Below are positions 5,992-15,973 of a DNA stretch of 64,000 nt, piece by piece. Under the pieces are notes generated by a model that saw only the letters and a list, made by a program, of their open reading frames with translations, did not search any database and was not told where the DNA came from. The position numbers and the translations under genes were made by a program. The DNA lies in NCBI RefSeq assembly GCF_044324875.1, contig NZ_CP172185.1; one strand, given 5' to 3'. How positions within the stretch are numbered: the stretch's first letter is position 1; the number at the start of each line of letters is the position of its first letter. This DNA is from Escherichia coli (GTDB lineage Bacteria > Pseudomonadota > Gammaproteobacteria > Enterobacterales > Enterobacteriaceae).

Positions 5992-6654
5992 ATGGCAAAA
6001 AGAACCAAAGCTGAAGCCCTGAAGACCCGGCAAGAACTGATTGAAACTGCCATCGCCCAGTTTGCGCAGCGTGGCGTAAGCAAGACGACGCTCAACGACA
6101 TTGCCGACGCCGCTAACGTTACGCGTGGCGCTATCTACTGGCACTTCGAGAACAAGACCCAACTGTTTAATGAGATGTGGTTGCAACAGCCTTCATTGCG
6201 GGAGTTAATCCAGGAACACTTGACGGCTGGATTAGAGCATGACCCGTTTCAGCAATTGCGTGAAAAATTGATTGTCGGCTTGCAATATATTGCCAAAATT
6301 CCCCGCCAGCAGGCGTTGCTGAAAATCTTATATCATAAATGTGAATTTAATGATGAGATGCTGGCCGAGGGGGTAATACGCGAAAAGATGGGCTTTAATC
6401 CGCAGACTCTACGCGAAGTATTGCAGGCATGTCAGCAACAAGGTTGTGTAGCAAATAATCTCGATTTAGATGTTGTGATGATTATTATTGATGGTGCCTT
6501 CAGCGGAATTGTTCAAAACTGGTTAATGAATATGGCGGGTTATGATCTTTATAAACAAGCACCCGCACTGGTCGATAACGTATTAAGAATGTTCATGCCA
6601 GATGAAAACATAACGAAATTAATTCATCAAACGAATGAATTAAGTGTCATATAA
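5992..6654 (+). CDS. acrS: TetR-family repressor of acrEF/acrAB (AcrS/EnvR)
   Basis: ORF track 5992..6654 (220 aa) MAKRTKAEALKTRQELIETAIAQFAQRGVSKTTLNDIADAANVTRGAIYWHF (TetR HTH); divergent from acrE; ATG confirmed at 5992. Confidence 0.93.
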   Translation: MAKRTKAEALKTRQELIETAIAQFAQRGVSKTTLNDIADAANVTRGAIYWHFENKTQLFNEMWLQQPSLRELIQEHLTAGLEHDPFQQLREKLIVGLQYIAKIPRQQALLKILYHKCEFNDEMLAEGVIREKMGFNPQTLREVLQACQQQGCVANNLDLDVVMIIIDGAFSGIVQNWLMNMAGYDLYKQAPALVDNVLRMFMPDENITKLIHQTNELSVI

Positions 6655-10398: not shown

Positions 10399-11850
10399 TT
10401 ATTTATCAGTAGTCAAAACGGTAGCTTGCGGGACGGATGTACCGAAACGGTTTCCGACCATGAAAGCCAGCAAACTTAGTAGTAACGAGGGCACGATAGG
10501 GTGGAAGCCCAGGTACTGAATATTCAGCGTCGCGAGTACGGCATACAGTACGCCGCCAACAATCATCGCACTTAGCGCGCCTTTGGCGTTGGCGCGTTCC
10601 CAGTAAAGACCCAGTACCAGCGGCCACAGGAAAACGGCTTCCAGCCCACCGAAGGCCAGCAAATTCAGCCAGATGATCATTTCTGGCGGCTTCCAGGCGG
10701 CAAGCAGCAGCAACGCACCGAGAACTAACGTAATTACCGCCGACATCCGCTTCAGACGCGTCTCGTTTTGCATTTGATCCGGACGGATATTCAAATAGAG
10801 ATCTTTAATGATCGTAGCGGAACTTTGCAGCAACTGGGCATTGATCGTCGACATGATCGCAGCCATAGGTGCAGCCAGGAAGATCCCGGCAGCAAACGGT
10901 GGCAACACTTTTACCATTAACGTCGGGATCACCAGGTCCGGTACGGTGAGATCGGGGATCACCGCCCGACCTAACGCTCCGGCCAGGTGCATACCGAACA
11001 TCAGGATTGCGACCACAATCGTACCGATGATGATCCCCCGATGTACGGCTTTGCTGTCTTTATAAGAGATACAGCGCACCGCAGTATGCGGCAGGCCAAT
11101 CACGCCAAAACACACCAGCACCCAGAACGACGTCATAAAGGCAGGCGACAGAATATCGTCAGCGCCTTGTGGCGTAACCAGTTGCGGATCGATGGTTTGC
11201 AGCGTCTCTACCGCATTGCTTAAGCCGCCAGCAGCATGGACCACGCCAATAAGCAGCACAATGGTGCCAATCAGCATCACCAGCCCTTGCATGGTGTCGT
11301 TCAGCACGCTGGCGCGAAAGCCGCCGAAGGCGGTGTAGAGCGCAATGCTGATGCCAAAAATCAGCAAACCTGTTTCATAAGGAATACCCGCCGCGGTTTC
11401 CAGCAGACGCGCACCGCCGATAAACTGCACGGTCATCGCACCAACGAACGCAACCAGCAAACTTAAACTCGCCAGCCACACCAGCAGACGACTCTGGTAG
11501 CGGGCAAATAGCATATCGTTCAGCGTCACCGCATTGTAGCGGCGCGCAAGAATCGCGAACTTCTTGCCGAGAATACCGAGCGAAAGCCAGACCGCAGGAA
11601 GTTGAATCATCGCCAGCAATACCCAACCCAGGCCGTATTTATAAGCAGCTCCAGGCCCGCCGATAAACGAACTGGCACTGATATAGGTCGCGGTGAGCGT
11701 CATCGCCAGCACAATACCGCCCATAGAGCGGCTACCGAGGAAATACTCATTAAGGAAGGTGCCGGTGCTCCGTTTACGCATCGCATAAACAGAGATACCG
11801 AACACCACCACCAGATAGGCGACCAGCGGTAGAATCACTTCAAGCTGCAT
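10399..11850 (-). CDS. panF: Sodium/pantothenate symporter
   Basis: ORF track 10399..11856; start set at [13 protein letters not shown]... (483 aa); SSS-family transporter; 11 bp upstream of prmA. Confidence 0.93.
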
Positions 11851-12082
11851 CGTCATCCTCCAGTGGGATATCGCGATAGATAAATTTCACCATCGCCCAG
11901 CACAGTCCAATAAACAGCAGCGGCGTCAGGATGCAGGCCATCTCAAACCAGCGCGGAAAGCCGGTAAAACCGGGGGCAACGCCAGGTAAGTAAGCGGCTA
12001 CTAACCATACCGCCAGATACAAAAGGGTCAGCCCCAGCGCCCAGCGCGCCTCTTTATGGGCCTGAACAAAACGAGTGTCCAT
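11840..12082 (-). CDS. yhdT: Small inner-membrane protein YhdT (DUF997)
   Basis: ORF track 11840..12082 (80 aa), two hydrophobic segments; 3' end overlaps panF start by 11 nt. Confidence 0.85.
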   Translation of the reverse strand: MDTRFVQAHKEARWALGLTLLYLAVWLVAAYLPGVAPGFTGFPRWFEMACILTPLLFIGLCWAMVKFIYRDIPLEDDDAA

Positions 12083-12190: not shown

Positions 12191-13540
12191 TTATTTTTCC
12201 TGAAGACCGAGTTTTTTCTCCAGATAGTGGATATTAGTACCACCATGCTGGAAGTTCTCGTCATTCATGATGCGGATCTGCAGATCAACGTTGGTTTTGA
12301 TACCGTCGATGATCAGCTCCTGCAGCGCATTCTTCATGCGGGCAATCGCCACGTCACGGTTTTCACCGTAGCAAATCAGCTTACCGATCATTGAGTCATA
12401 GTACGGCGGTACGGTGTAGCCCGCGTAGATATGAGACTCCCAACGTACGCCAAAACCGCCAGGTGCGTGGAAACGGGTGATTTTGCCCGGACTTGGCAGG
12501 AAGGTGTTCGGATCTTCGGCGTTGATACGACATTCCACCGCATGGCCGCGAACGTGAACTTCTTCTTGCTTGATCGACAGCGGTTGACCGGCAGCGATAC
12601 GCAGCTGTTCTTTGATCAGGTCAACGCCGGTGATCATTTCGGTAACCGGATGTTCTACCTGAATACGGGTGTTCATTTCGATGAAATAGAACTCGCCGTT
12701 TTCGAACAGGAACTCGAAAGTACCTGCACCGCGATAGCCGATATCAACACACGCTTTAGCGCAACGTTCGCCGATGTAGCGACGCAGTTCCGGGGTAATG
12801 CCCGGTGCTGGTGCTTCTTCGACCACTTTCTGGTGGCGGCGTTGCATGGAGCAGTCACGTTCCGCCAGATAGATAGCGTTGCCCTGACCGTCAGCCAGTA
12901 CCTGAATCTCGACGTGGCGAGGATTTTCCAGGTATTTCTCCATGTAAACCATATCGTTGCTGAAAGCAGCTTTCGCTTCCGCACGGGTCATGGAGATGGA
13001 TTGTGCCAGTTCAGCGTCGCCGCGCACTACGCGCATACCGCGACCACCGCCGCCGCCGGAGGCTTTGATAATCACCGGATAACCAATGCGTTTAGCAATG
13101 GCGCGGTTTTTATCCATATCGTCGCCCAGCGGGCCGTCAGAACCCGGTACGCAAGGAACGCCTGCTTTTTTCATCGCCGCGATTGCGGATACTTTGTCGC
13201 CCATCAGGCGAATGGTTTCTGCTTTCGGGCCGATGAAGATAAAGCCGGAGCGCTCAACCTGCTCGGCAAAGTTGGCGTTCTCGGAGAGGAAGCCGTAACC
13301 CGGATGGATTGCTACTGCGCCGGTGATTTCAGCGGCGCTGATGATTGCCGGGATGTTCAGATAACTTTTTACTGATGGAGCAGGGCCGATACAGACCGTT
13401 TCATCTGCCAGTAATACGTGTTTTAGATCGCGATCCGCGCTGGAGTGCACAGCGACAGTCTTGATGCCCAGTTCTTTACAGGCACGAAGAATACGCAATG
13501 CAATCTCGCCGCGGTTGGCAATAACAATTTTATCCAGCAT
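12191..13540 (-). CDS. accC: Biotin carboxylase subunit of acetyl-CoA carboxylase
   Basis: ORF track 12191..13579; start set at internal Met [33 protein letters not shown] (449 aa), 10 bp after accB stop. Confidence 0.96.
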
Positions 13541-13550
13541 GTTCGCCTCG

Positions 13551-14021
13551 TTACTCGATGACGACCAGCGGCTCGTCAAATTCTACCGGTTGTCCACTTT
13601 CGACCAGAATTGCTTTCACGGTACCGGATTTGTCCGCTTCGATCTGGTTCATCATTTTCATGGCTTCAACGATGCACAGGGTATCGCCCACGTTGACTTT
13701 CTGACCCACTTCGATGAACGCTTTCGCGTCCGGGCTTGGGGTGCGGTAGAAAGTACCAACCATCGGGGAACGTACGATGTGACCACTGATTTCCGCTGCT
13801 GCTGGCGCTTCCATTGAAGGAACGGTCGCCGGAGCGGCTGCGTTAGATTGAGCTGGCTGCTGCATCATTGGTGCAGCGTAAGCTTGTTGCATCACAGGGA
13901 AACTTGCGGCAGGAGCTGCACGGCTAATGCGTACTGACTCTTCGCCTTCAGAAATTTCCAGTTCGGAGATGCCTGATTCTTCAACCAGCTCGATCAGTTT
14001 TTTAATCTTACGAATATCCAT
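13551..14021 (-). CDS. accB: Biotin carboxyl carrier protein
   Basis: ORF track 13551..14021 (156 aa) [34 protein letters not shown]...; biotinylation motif [10 protein letters not shown]; Ala/Pro-rich linker. Confidence 0.97.
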
Positions 14022-14998
14022 GAGTGGGTTCCGTACTCTTTGTTTAGTGTGATTGTGACAGGCGTTTCACCGCCGTCTGTAAAGCGTATGCCCCGACAGC
14101 TGTATGCATAGCGATAAATTCCAGCAGGCCGGGACGCCGGTCTATTTTGCCCCAGAGTGTCAATGTTAGACTTGACGGACATTGTGCAGCGATCTGCTGC
14201 TATCCTCCGGCAAAAAACAAAATATACCTTCGTTGCGCCAATGTCACCTTTTCCGCAGCGCAAAAACTGCGTCAGGGAGGACGAGGTCGCACATTATAAC
14301 GATTTCGTAGCAATTGGCAGCTAAATACTGGTCTTATCAGGGAAGATAATCAACAGCTAACATGTAAATAACCTTCAACACCGTGTAATTTGCAACAAGC
14401 CGCACAATTCACGAAATTAGCGCCATCATCGACGGAACTTCTTATAACGTAAGGTGAAAAGCTGTAAAGCCAGCCCTGCGAAGATGAGGGGCTGCAATGA
14501 GATAATCTTCACAGACCACAAATAATCTAGGGATGCCAGGATCGCGACAAGATAGACGACATTACGCAGCGGTTGCTGAGGATTACGCAATTTTCACTTC
14601 ATCGTCTGGATAGATGTGAATGCTAAAGCACGCAAAATCAACCGTCTGACAATGCTCAGCATCAAATACGTTCGAGTGGTTAATTTGTAGGCAAATAAAA
14701 TCAGATTATTCACCCCATGGTACCAGAAATCAGTAACAGGTTAAGCGTAGCGTCGCCCAGGCAAAGCACCATAAACCTAACAGGCGACGGAGGCGTATCA
14801 ATAATGGCTGTTTAGTGGAGTAACAGTGCGCATCAATTTATGGTCAGTCGAAATCATGACTTTCCAGTTTGGATGATGTTGTACAACTTCATGACCAAGA
14901 TGTTCGACGAAAGCTGTCCGGCTAACCGCTTTTCCCGTTAACCGATTGAATAATGATTTCAAAATGAGTTCCCTCTCTTATTAATCCTTGCTAAATGG

Positions 14999-15973
14999 TT
15001 AGTTAACCTTCACCAGCGTGCGACCCTGGATCTGGTTATTAATGATGGCCTCGGCAAACTTCGGTGCCTCTGCCAGAGATATCTCTTTTGCCGCCTGGGT
15101 ATAGAATGATTCCGGTAAATCGGCGACCAGTCGCTGCCAGGCTTGTGCGCGGCGTGCTGGTGGCGTCATCACTGAATCCACCCCCTGTAAACGGACATTA
15201 CGCAGAATAAATGGCATGACCGTGGTTGGCAGAGTAAAACCACCCGCCAGACCACAGGCCGCCACGCAGCCGCCGTAATTCATTTGCGCCAGCACTTTTG
15301 CAAGCACTTTGTCGCCAACGGTGTCAATTGCCCCAGCCCAGACTTGTTTTTCCAGAGGACGGGATTCGGCAAACTCATCGCGAGGGAGAATACGGCTGGC
15401 TCCTAAACTTTTCAGATATTCATGGGTACTTTCGCGACCAGAAACGGCAACGACCTGATAACCCAACTTATGCAGCAGCGCCACGGCGGTACTGCCGACG
15501 CCACCACTGGCACCCGTCACGACAATCTCCCCATCCTGCGGGCGAACACCGGCATCTTCCAGTGCCATCACACACAGCATGGCGGTAAAACCGGCAGTAC
15601 CGATAATCATTGCTTTACGCGCGTCCAGCCCTTGCGGCATGGCAACCAGCCAGTCACCTTTCACTCGCGCCTGCTCCGCCAGCCCACCCCAGTGGTTTTC
15701 ACCAACGCCCCAGCCAGTGAGTAATACGTCCTGACCGGCATGAAAACGCGGATCTTCGCTGGTGCGTACAGTTCCGGCAAAATCGATCCCAGGAATCATC
15801 GGAAAATTACGGATGATTTTTCCCTTACCGGTAATCGCCAGCGCATCTTTGTAGTTCAGGCTCGACCAGTGAACATCAACCGTGACATCGCCCTCCGGCA
15901 GGCAACTTTCGTCCAGAGTCTTTACCGATGCGAGAGTTTTGCCGTCCTGCTGTTCTAAAAGTAACGCCTGCAT
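14999..15973 (-). CDS. acuI: Acrylyl-CoA reductase / quinone oxidoreductase-like (YhdH)
   Basis: ORF track 14999..15973 (324 aa) MQALLLEQQDGKTLASVKTLDESCLPEGDVTVDVHWSSLNYKD...; MDR-superfamily, nucleotide-binding GASGGVGS. Confidence 0.9.
   Translation of the reverse strand: MQALLLEQQDGKTLASVKTLDESCLPEGDVTVDVHWSSLNYKDALAITGKGKIIRNFPMIPGIDFAGTVRTSEDPRFHAGQDVLLTGWGVGENHWGGLAEQARVKGDWLVAMPQGLDARKAMIIGTAGFTAMLCVMALEDAGVRPQDGEIVVTGASGGVGSTAVALLHKLGYQVVAVSGRESTHEYLKSLGASRILPRDEFAESRPLEKQVWAGAIDTVGDKVLAKVLAQMNYGGCVAACGLAGGFTLPTTVMPFILRNVRLQGVDSVMTPPARRAQAWQRLVADLPESFYTQAAKEISLAEAPKFAEAIINNQIQGRTLVKVN

Follow-up and report, generated by a model that had tools for sequence, protein, structure and literature searches.

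The closest described counterparts of the locus studied here are the promoter and leader of the accBC operon, the msrP-msrQ genes and two pseudogenes of Escherichia coli K-12. The accBC promoter, followed by a long autoregulated leader, has reportedly been described by Li and Cronan (1992/1993) and by James and Cronan (2004). MsrQ (YedZ), which binds haem, is the membrane partner of MsrP, a periplasmic methionine sulfoxide reductase. In MG1655, yrdF (b4697, 3404495-3404637) and yrdE (b4646, 3404638-3405031) are annotated as pseudogenes, and both are listed as such in a J Bacteriol paper (PMC7648144). The construct yrdE-kan serves as a linked marker for mre alleles.

The window analysed is a stretch of 64,000 nucleotides of an E. 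coli genome (contig NZ_CP172185.1 of assembly GCF_044324875.1), in which the gap between acuI and accB had drawn attention through its length and had been proposed, in an earlier note, to harbour an unannotated sRNA or a small protein. This interval is almost certainly made of two pseudogene remnants, hereafter yrdF' and yrdE', followed by the original msrQ-accB spacer with the accBC promoter and its long leader. The gap is ordinary and already explained, the yrdF and yrdE pseudogenes being present in the K-12 reference annotation. Compared with K-12 yrdE and yrdF, the window displays the same locus, length and strand, and strain-level substitutions are the sole difference. Because annotated pseudogenes and a well-studied promoter and leader account for its length, the gap is unfit as a candidate sRNA or small-protein locus.

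The acuI-accB interval and its two pseudogenes

According to the list of open reading frames, the gap covers positions 14022-14998, that is the 977 bp previously stated, and both flanking genes are on the minus strand: accB downstream (14021->13551, a 156-aa ORF) and acuI, or yhdH, upstream (15973->14999, a 324-aa ORF that bears the acuI/yhdH label in all the E. coli loci fetched). Further out, accC has its end at 13540, beyond accB, and csrD is located on the plus strand from 16125 onwards. The K-12 orientation of the locus is the reverse of that of the window. The sole ORF of at least 60 aa touching the interval is an 89-aa ORF with a TTG start (13994-14263, minus strand) that overlaps the accB start, as had also been noticed from the sequence, and the next-largest ORFs of the interval have 55, 54 and 54 aa. 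The comparison with the K-12 yhdH-accB region, which had been suggested as a check, led to MG1655 positions 3404459-3405435, an interval of the same 977 bp that contains the two annotated pseudogenes and aligns without gaps, with 27 substitutions (about 97% identity). A match to the interval was found in 5425 of 5426 complete E. coli genomes, with at least 80% of it at one place in 5420 of the 5426 and an identity of at least 95% in nearly all of them. Considering the same length in K-12 and this near-universal presence, the 977-bp length is real and a fixed property of the species.

On the acuI side, a spacer of 36 bp (14963-14998, minus strand) carries the purine-rich stretch GAGAGGGAA 5' of the TTG start of yrdF', and its layout is identical ahead of an intact gene of 277 aa found at the same place in another E. 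coli locus. The product of this intact gene (WP_000838294.1, present in some E. coli) is named “DUF1444 domain-containing protein” by PGAP, and yrdF' (143 bp, 14962-14820, minus strand) corresponds to codons 1 to about 48 of it, the remaining ~229 codons being absent from the window. With the intact protein as a tblastn query, 45 of 48 residues were identical (E = 7e-29), and MG1655 yrdF maps base for base onto yrdF'. The name DUF1444 is a PGAP label. The Pfam profile PF07285 (DUF1444) matched the intact allele, scored as a 276-aa protein, over profile positions 15-254 of 264, with 16 bits and E = 0.009, which is below the gathering threshold of 23.8, and a Pfam search with the 54-aa remnant of the window gave no PF07285 match. 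The DUF1444-like family is tiny, with 12 database clusters, and one 63%-identical member is located among KfrA and Aca2 genes, a neighbourhood which suggests a mobile origin of the gene.

The remainder of the distal part is occupied by yrdE' (394 bp, 14819-14426, minus strand), which corresponds to msrQ (yedZ) codons ~67-196 and onto which MG1655 yrdE maps base for base. The tblastn comparison of K-12 MsrQ with the window revealed residues 69-95 at 89% and residues 101-195 at 63% identity (E = 7e-38), the matches being split over two minus-strand frames with internal stops. Over residues 69-195, yrdE' thus retains 63-89% amino-acid identity with MsrQ, and it occupies the ancestral msrQ slot directly upstream of accB; it differs from MsrQ by the loss of the N-terminal ~66 codons, by stops and a frameshift, and by the lack of an adjacent msrP. 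Instead of an uninterrupted frame of ~196-211 codons, it displays two in-frame stops and one frameshift, a +1 shift near codon 100. No MsrP similarity was found by tblastn within the interval of the window. Three conserved MsrQ histidines, His91, His151 and His164, which we take to be the haem ligands, are replaced by Arg, Arg and Asp in the window, compared with Arg, Arg and His in K-12 yrdE'; the Asp at position 164 sets the window apart from K-12, as does an additional TGA behind codon 95. yrdE' is therefore no working gene. In other genomes PGAP describes the same stretch as “frameshifted; internal stop; missing N-terminus”, and its labels at the interval in some genomes are “sulfoxide reductase heme-binding subunit YedZ” and “cytochrome b family protein”, each with a pseudogene flag. 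The conceptual yrdE' peptide of 129 aa matched no Pfam family at E <= 0.1, so that the identification rests on BLAST and synteny.

Synteny of msrPQ and the two alleles of the interval

The distribution of msrQ was surveyed with the K-12 MsrQ as query, using one genome per species, and the 80 loci obtained were annotated with marker proteins. The order csrD, (acuI), msrP, msrQ, accB, accC was retrieved in 75 of the 80 msrQ loci, five of these 75 ending before accB. An intact msrP-msrQ pair is located between acuI and accB in more than 70 other Enterobacterales species, the full order being csrD (on the opposite strand), acuI, msrP, msrQ, accB, accC and yhdT, with acuI absent in a few. The genera with accB-linked msrPQ include Citrobacter, Salmonella, Klebsiella, Raoultella, Enterobacter, Kosakonia, Kluyvera, Leclercia, Buttiauxella, Erwinia, Chimaeribacter and Prodigiosinella, among others. 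The same linkage is present in three divergent Escherichia lineages, namely Escherichia sp. E1V33, E. whittamii and “E. coli E69”, where the msrQ stop and the accB ATG lie 404 bp apart; in the window, the yrdE' stop is separated from the accB ATG by the same 404 bp. Among the surveyed loci, the arrangement hprRS-hiuH-msrPQ-zinT was observed only in K-12, in Escherichia sp. MOD1-EC7003 and in E. albertii.

At the DNA level, yrdE' is 78.4% identical to the accB-linked msrQ of Escherichia, against 74.7% to the working msrQ of E. coli itself, and its 3' end is still that of the accB-linked genes (...KKFRQWWR*), apart from a TGG that has become TGA in E. coli. Between the hiuH-linked working msrQ and the accB-linked genes, homology ends at codon ~194. 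Since yrdE' is closer to the accB-linked genes and has kept their 3' end, it is the positional ortholog and the fossil of the ancestral msrQ. A nonsense codon at R141 (CGA to TGA) is common to both E. coli alleles and to E. albertii, and the inactivation is therefore older than the split between these two species.

Two alleles of the interval coexist in E. coli. The long allele, found in 667-670 of the 5426 genomes (about 12%), consists of the intact 277-aa gene, a 5' remnant of msrP of ~90 bp and msrQ from about codon 93, and the same architecture is found in E. albertii. The short allele, shared by the window, K-12 and about 88% of E. coli, has the DUF1444-like gene joined at its codon ~48 to msrQ codon ~67. 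A derivation of the short allele by deletion of the long one was considered and ruled out: msrQ codons 67-92 are retained in the short allele and missing from the long allele in both E. coli and E. albertii. For the same reason, no simple step leads from one allele to the other in either direction, and the history of the alleles would need an unsampled intermediate or an old polymorphism. A metagenome-assembled contig carries acuI, a 78%-identical homologue of the DUF1444-like gene and an intact msrP N-terminus, a gene order that would be expected for the precursor.

Several other candidates were rejected during this comparison. A stretch of the long allele, GCCGCACTGCCGCCTG, was at one point taken for a remnant of msrQ and was found to align better to the signal-peptide region of msrP. 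A fuller E. coli allele, with the DUF1444-like gene, msrP and msrQ together, was sought, and the one split match examined proved to be a long allele with an IS1 insertion. A recombination joint was also considered between the tail of K-12 MsrQ (LRSLFNRL) and the N-terminus of the DUF1444-like protein (LKSLFNRL); the DNA is ~16/24 identical as counted by eye, the protein E-value is 0.5, and the likeness is probably due to chance.

The following scenario could accommodate these observations. In the common ancestor of the sampled Enterobacterales, msrP-msrQ would have been located between acuI and accB, and, in the Escherichia lineage, a small gene (DUF1444 according to PGAP) would have entered between acuI and msrP. 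Behind hiuH, beside the hprRS two-component system, a copy of msrP-msrQ that begins at the msrP start and ends at msrQ codon ~194 would then have been established. The accB-linked copy would subsequently have decayed, with the R141 nonsense mutation of msrQ arising before the E. coli/E. albertii split and with deletions removing msrP. Finally, a deletion joining the DUF1444-like codon ~48 to msrQ codon ~67 would have given rise to the short allele. The order of these events is what we infer; what was observed are the homologies and their coordinates, the synteny, the inactivating mutation common to both species and the contrast in diversity presented below.

Under this scenario, yrdE' records that, in E. 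coli and E. albertii, the repair genes msrPQ left the neighbourhood of accB for the HOCl-responsive hprRS-hiuH locus. With yrdE' marking the ancestral msrPQ site, it is conceivable that the move behind hiuH put msrPQ under the control of HprRS in E. coli, while Salmonella, with its accB-linked copy, uses Cpx. In Salmonella, msrP has indeed been described as regulated via Cpx and not via the HprRS homologue (PMC10083560). The relocation of msrPQ fits this published difference between E. coli (HprRS) and Salmonella (Cpx) in the regulation of msrP.

Neutral and constrained DNA, and candidate products of the distal part

Sequence diversity was determined in a sample of nine short-allele E. coli genomes. 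Segregating sites amount to 10.9% in yrdE' (pi = 0.041) and 7.0% in yrdF', compared with 8.9% at acuI third codon positions and 6.4% at accB third codon positions, and they fall to 1.0% in the 404-bp spacer (pi = 0.0026). Fisher tests showed no difference between the pseudogenes and the acuI third positions (p = 0.72) and placed the spacer below yrdE' (p = 4e-10); the spacer is also below the accB third positions (p = 8e-4). A second contrast comes from the comparison with K-12: on the gene strand, the 27 positions at which the window and K-12 differ are confined to the first 534 nt of the interval, and the last 443 nt contain none (p = 7e-8). Because pseudogenes at the neutral rate adjoin a constrained spacer, the interval can be split into a distal part of 573 bp that, judging by its diversity, behaves as junk, and a proximal part of 404 bp that behaves as functional non-coding DNA under strong purifying selection. 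The locus consequently offers a clean natural control, in which neutral pseudogenes adjoin a constrained non-coding accBC leader. The earlier note was right that nearly 1 kb is too much for an accBC leader alone, the promoter and leader being contained in the accB-proximal 404 bp; its suggestion of an unannotated sRNA or small protein found no support, since the other 573 bp are the yrdF' and yrdE' remnants evolving at the neutral rate.

It is very improbable that the interval encodes a small protein, for which two ORFs were considered. The one that had been pointed out earlier, a 22-codon ORF (MMLYNFMTKMFDESCPANRFSR, 14873-14941), was found on the plus strand, antisense to yrdF', as part of a 33-codon ORF starting from 14840; no Shine-Dalgarno sequence was seen ahead of it, in line with the previous remark that it had no obvious ribosome-binding site. 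The other is a chimeric minus-strand ORF of 54 codons (14962-14798), which begins at the yrdF' start and then runs out of frame into yrdE'. Both are intact in the nine short-allele genomes, and the chimeric ORF keeps the native start and the ribosome-binding region of the DUF1444-like gene, with the purine-rich stretch before its TTG, and is called “hypothetical protein” by PGAP in some genomes (WP_000838301.1, WP_000838287.1). Their substitutions nevertheless argue against a coding function: in the nine genomes, 1 synonymous to 3 nonsynonymous changes were counted in the 22-codon ORF and 3 to 10 in the 54-codon ORF, where no constraint is visible, against 27:11 in acuI and 10:0 in accB. Neither ORF has a Pfam match. 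As a weak additional point, the novel translated small ORFs of Stringer et al. have no entry at K-12 34044xx-34049xx in the part of the table that was available, whose completeness is uncertain.

The possibility that the distal part (14426-14998) encodes an independent sRNA on either strand, its homology to pseudogenes being incidental or its sequence having been exapted, is just as hard to sustain. The hairpin cagccctgcgaagatgaggggctg, previously placed at ~14470-14493, is indeed present within 1 nt of that position, at 14471-14494, and is of modest stability (-14.5 kcal/mol, z = -1.97, with 7 of 200 shuffled sequences folding as well). It lies inside yrdE', at the msrQ codons for QPLIFAGL, its arms CAGCC...GGCTG are also found in working Escherichia msrQ genes, and no T-run follows it. 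Published Term-seq data (Adams et al. 2021, PMC7815308) provide two further gene-strand features that could favour an sRNA: a Rho-dependent region located 60 nt beyond the acuI stop (K-12 3404518, window 14939), and a weak orphan 3' end at K-12 3404827 (window 14630), inside yrdE'. The latter indicates some level of transcription in the pseudogene region, but both features are best read as termination or decay of acuI read-through, and on the strand opposite the genes the tables of that study list no 3' end at the interval. No terminator-like site was found in 13900-15100, and the diversity of the distal part equals that of third codon positions. Scanned against Rfam at E <= 10, positions 13500-15500 yielded sub-threshold matches only, those to ssnA, sR5 and isrG being dismissed as chance, and in the distal part itself no family was matched apart from ssnA, at 13 bits. 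Moreover, inserting a kan cassette into yrdE is a routine way of obtaining a marker. The distal part is therefore still to be read as the remnants of two genes.

The accBC promoter and leader

The ancestral msrQ-accB spacer (404 bp, 14425-14022, minus strand) contains the accBC promoter and leader, and was aligned over 13 sequences from four genera. Its distal part (14425-14358, minus strand) includes a TTTACA hexamer at 14368-14363, and is followed by a core promoter block, GGTTGATTATCTTCCCTGATAAGACCAGTATTTAGCTGCCAATTGCTACGAAATCGTTATAATGTGCGAC (14357-14283, minus strand), which is near-invariant in Escherichia, Citrobacter, Salmonella and Klebsiella. The promoter scan located the best match of the region in this block: CTGCCA (14320-14315) and TATAAT (14298-14293), separated by a 16-nt spacer and together agreeing with 10 of the 12 consensus positions. 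Both hexamers are invariant in the 13 sequences of the four genera. The predicted start of transcription from this promoter is near 14287, so that the leader would measure about 265 nt (14286-14022). A second and weaker candidate combines the TTTACA hexamer with TATCTT (14347-14342) over a 15-nt spacer, with a putative start near 14334 and a leader of about 313 nt, a length which presumably agrees with the classical mapping of the accBC start. The arrangement was compared with the accBC promoter and leader of Li and Cronan: a sigma-70-like promoter conserved across genera and an untranslated leader of 265-313 nt were found, and nothing different was detected.

Within the leader, 3 segregating sites were counted in 265 nt among the nine E. 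coli genomes, and its conservation exceeds that of synonymous sites (1.0% against 6.4-8.9%, p <= 8e-4). The 13-sequence alignment delimits conserved blocks at 14250-14210 and 14085-14022 (minus strand). A small hairpin of 4 bp with an 8-nt loop (14202-14199 with 14190-14187, minus strand) is paired in 12 of 12 sequences, and one of its pairs covaries, being GC in six sequences, AU in three and UA in three. Besides these features, the leader bears a likeness to Rfam RF02764, Ysr190 (Yersinia sRNA 190), over 14318-14219 on the minus strand, a segment that includes the -10 box and reaches ~70 nt into the leader. In the window this match reaches 25.3 bits (E = 0.39), below the gathering score of 66, and the msrQ-accB spacers of Chimaeribacter and Prodigiosinella reach 49.9 and 37.8 bits, respectively. 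Each of the three matches is on the gene strand and falls in the spacer that separates accB from msrQ or yrdE'. The E. coli leader shares with Ysr190 its genomic position, the 5' ~35 nt and a U-rich 3' end; it differs by a score far below the gathering score, by model helices that are mostly unformed and by a match that takes in the -10 box. Given this shared position, the Yersinia “sRNA 190” is the promoter-proximal part of the accB leader.

Whether the constraint on the leader also reflects a function of the RNA was considered as a reading that does not conflict with the main explanation. The first ~70-115 nt, which are invariant, might form a functional cis-regulatory RNA, for instance an element serving the self-repression of AccB and thus a target of its autoregulation, and might release a short leader-derived RNA. 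We regard this as conceivable though doubtful. In its favour stand the low diversity of the leader relative to synonymous sites, the Ysr190 matches in the homologous spacer of Yersiniaceae-related genomes, the invariant blocks GAAAAGGTGACA and GAAGGTATATTTTGTTTTTTGCC together with the covarying 4-bp hairpin, and a 3' end 63 nt upstream of accB, recorded by Term-seq as a low-level Rho-independent end at K-12 3405373, that is window 14084 (PMC7815308). The structural evidence points the other way: the E. coli match to Ysr190 (25 against 66 bits) has many broken pairs, the E. coli leader folds no more stably than shuffled sequences (z = -1.6 and -0.7), and the RNAalifold consensus is weak (-12.75 kcal/mol) with a single covarying pair. 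The Ysr190 model furthermore includes TATAAT, so that part of the conservation it captures is that of promoter DNA. An intrinsic attenuator located before the U-tract of the leader was also considered and rejected, its folds being no better than those of shuffled sequences and its support from RNAalifold being weak.

Two minor observations concern the conserved segments of this spacer. The start of the accBC leader is conserved from Escherichia to relatives of Yersinia, where it is catalogued as Ysr190. Inside the core promoter block, a conserved upstream stretch, TGATAAGACCAGTATTT (14339-14323, minus strand), contains on its opposite strand the motif CTGGTC, which we take to recall a FadR half-site.

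Genomic position of msrPQ and the MsrQ tail

The arrangement acuI-msrP-msrQ-accB was retrieved in about 75 of the 80 species sampled (loci L006-L085, with msrQ at ~6001-6588 in most of them), and three divergent Escherichia lineages (L007-L009) are among the species having msrP-msrQ between acuI and accB. A msrP-msrQ pair linked to hprRS-hiuH was found among these species only in K-12 (msrPQ locus L004, 3479-5119), Escherichia sp. MOD1-EC7003 (L006) and E. albertii (L011). The accB-linked and the hiuH-linked copies are homologous from a point near the msrP start codon to msrQ codon ~194. Citrobacter portucalensis and Citrobacter sp. wls619 display, besides the accB-linked pair, a second and more divergent msrPQ pair (L076 and L085, 4996-6600), whose MsrQ identity is 73-75% and which adjoins a different two-component system with about 36% identity to HprR.

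The hiuH-linked MsrQ bears an extra C-terminal tail, …LRSLFNRLRKQVHNKLSV in K-12 (L004 5062-5119), the start of which shares 7 of 8 residues with the N-terminus LKSLFNRL of the DUF1444-like protein (window 14962-14939), the corresponding DNA being identical at only about 16 of 24 positions when compared by eye. This likeness is probably due to chance. It is located exactly at the breakpoint of the msrPQ relocation.

Short and long alleles of the acuI-accB interval

The two E. coli alleles of this interval differ reciprocally in their content. The short allele, present in the window and in K-12, has kept msrQ codons 67-92, which are absent from the long allele, whereas only the latter contains the rest of the DUF1444-like gene and a 5' remnant of msrP (window 14719-14819 compared with L002 3198-4053, a long-allele locus). 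Since each allele retains material missing in the other, and since E. albertii has the same long architecture as long-allele E. coli, the comparison implies either that the two alleles arose from an unsampled ancestor by separate deletions or that the polymorphism is old. In one E. coli genome with the long allele, strain 23AR0998, an IS1A insertion separates the DUF1444-like gene from the msrQ remnant (L094 5303-6000).

Among complete E. coli genomes, about 12% carry, as does E. albertii, an intact copy of the orphan-like gene of 277 aa (L002 3366-4196, minus strand) that PGAP labels DUF1444. The score of its product against Pfam DUF1444 was under threshold, and only 12 database clusters were found. 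The gene and its homologues were also located in L092, L093, L094, L095 (1-540), L096 (3898-4731) and the metagenome-assembled contig L098 (1005-1835), where it is flanked by acuI and an intact msrP. A homologue with 63% identity has KfrA and Aca2 genes as neighbours, a setting that looks mobile.

Directly past accC, a gene for an "aldose 1-epimerase family protein" was observed in strains HM670 and 806883-9-2019 (L001 1-578 and L002 1-578, compared with L003 1-561); the same place is occupied in K-12 and the window by yhdT-panF (yhdT 11840-12082, panF 10399-11856).

The accBC upstream region

Three features on the gene strand of the interval appear in published Term-seq tables (window 14084, 14630 and 14939, i.e. 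K-12 3405373, 3404827 and 3404518): a pair of low-level "orphan" 3' ends and a region of Rho-dependent termination; no such feature is listed on the opposite strand (PMC7815308). The Rfam family Ysr190 ("Yersinia sRNA 190") corresponds to the promoter of accB together with the 5' leader (window 14219-14318, minus strand; L062 6702-6803; L072 6704-6805), and its model contains the TATAAT box; Ysr190 may be a leader fragment and not a stand-alone sRNA gene.

Within E. coli, segregating sites amount to 1.0% in the 404 bp upstream of accBC (14022-14425), against 6.4% and 8.9% at synonymous positions of accB and acuI, respectively. Parts of this region, at about 14160-14090, vary freely between genera. 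In Escherichia, Citrobacter, Salmonella and some Klebsiella, msrQ and accB are separated by about 404 bp. In Enterobacter, Raoultella, Kosakonia, Kluyvera and others (L020, L023-L026, L033, L036, L039-L042 and others; msrQ end ~6588, accB start ~7309) this spacer measures about 720 bp, which leaves roughly 300 additional bases upstream of accB.
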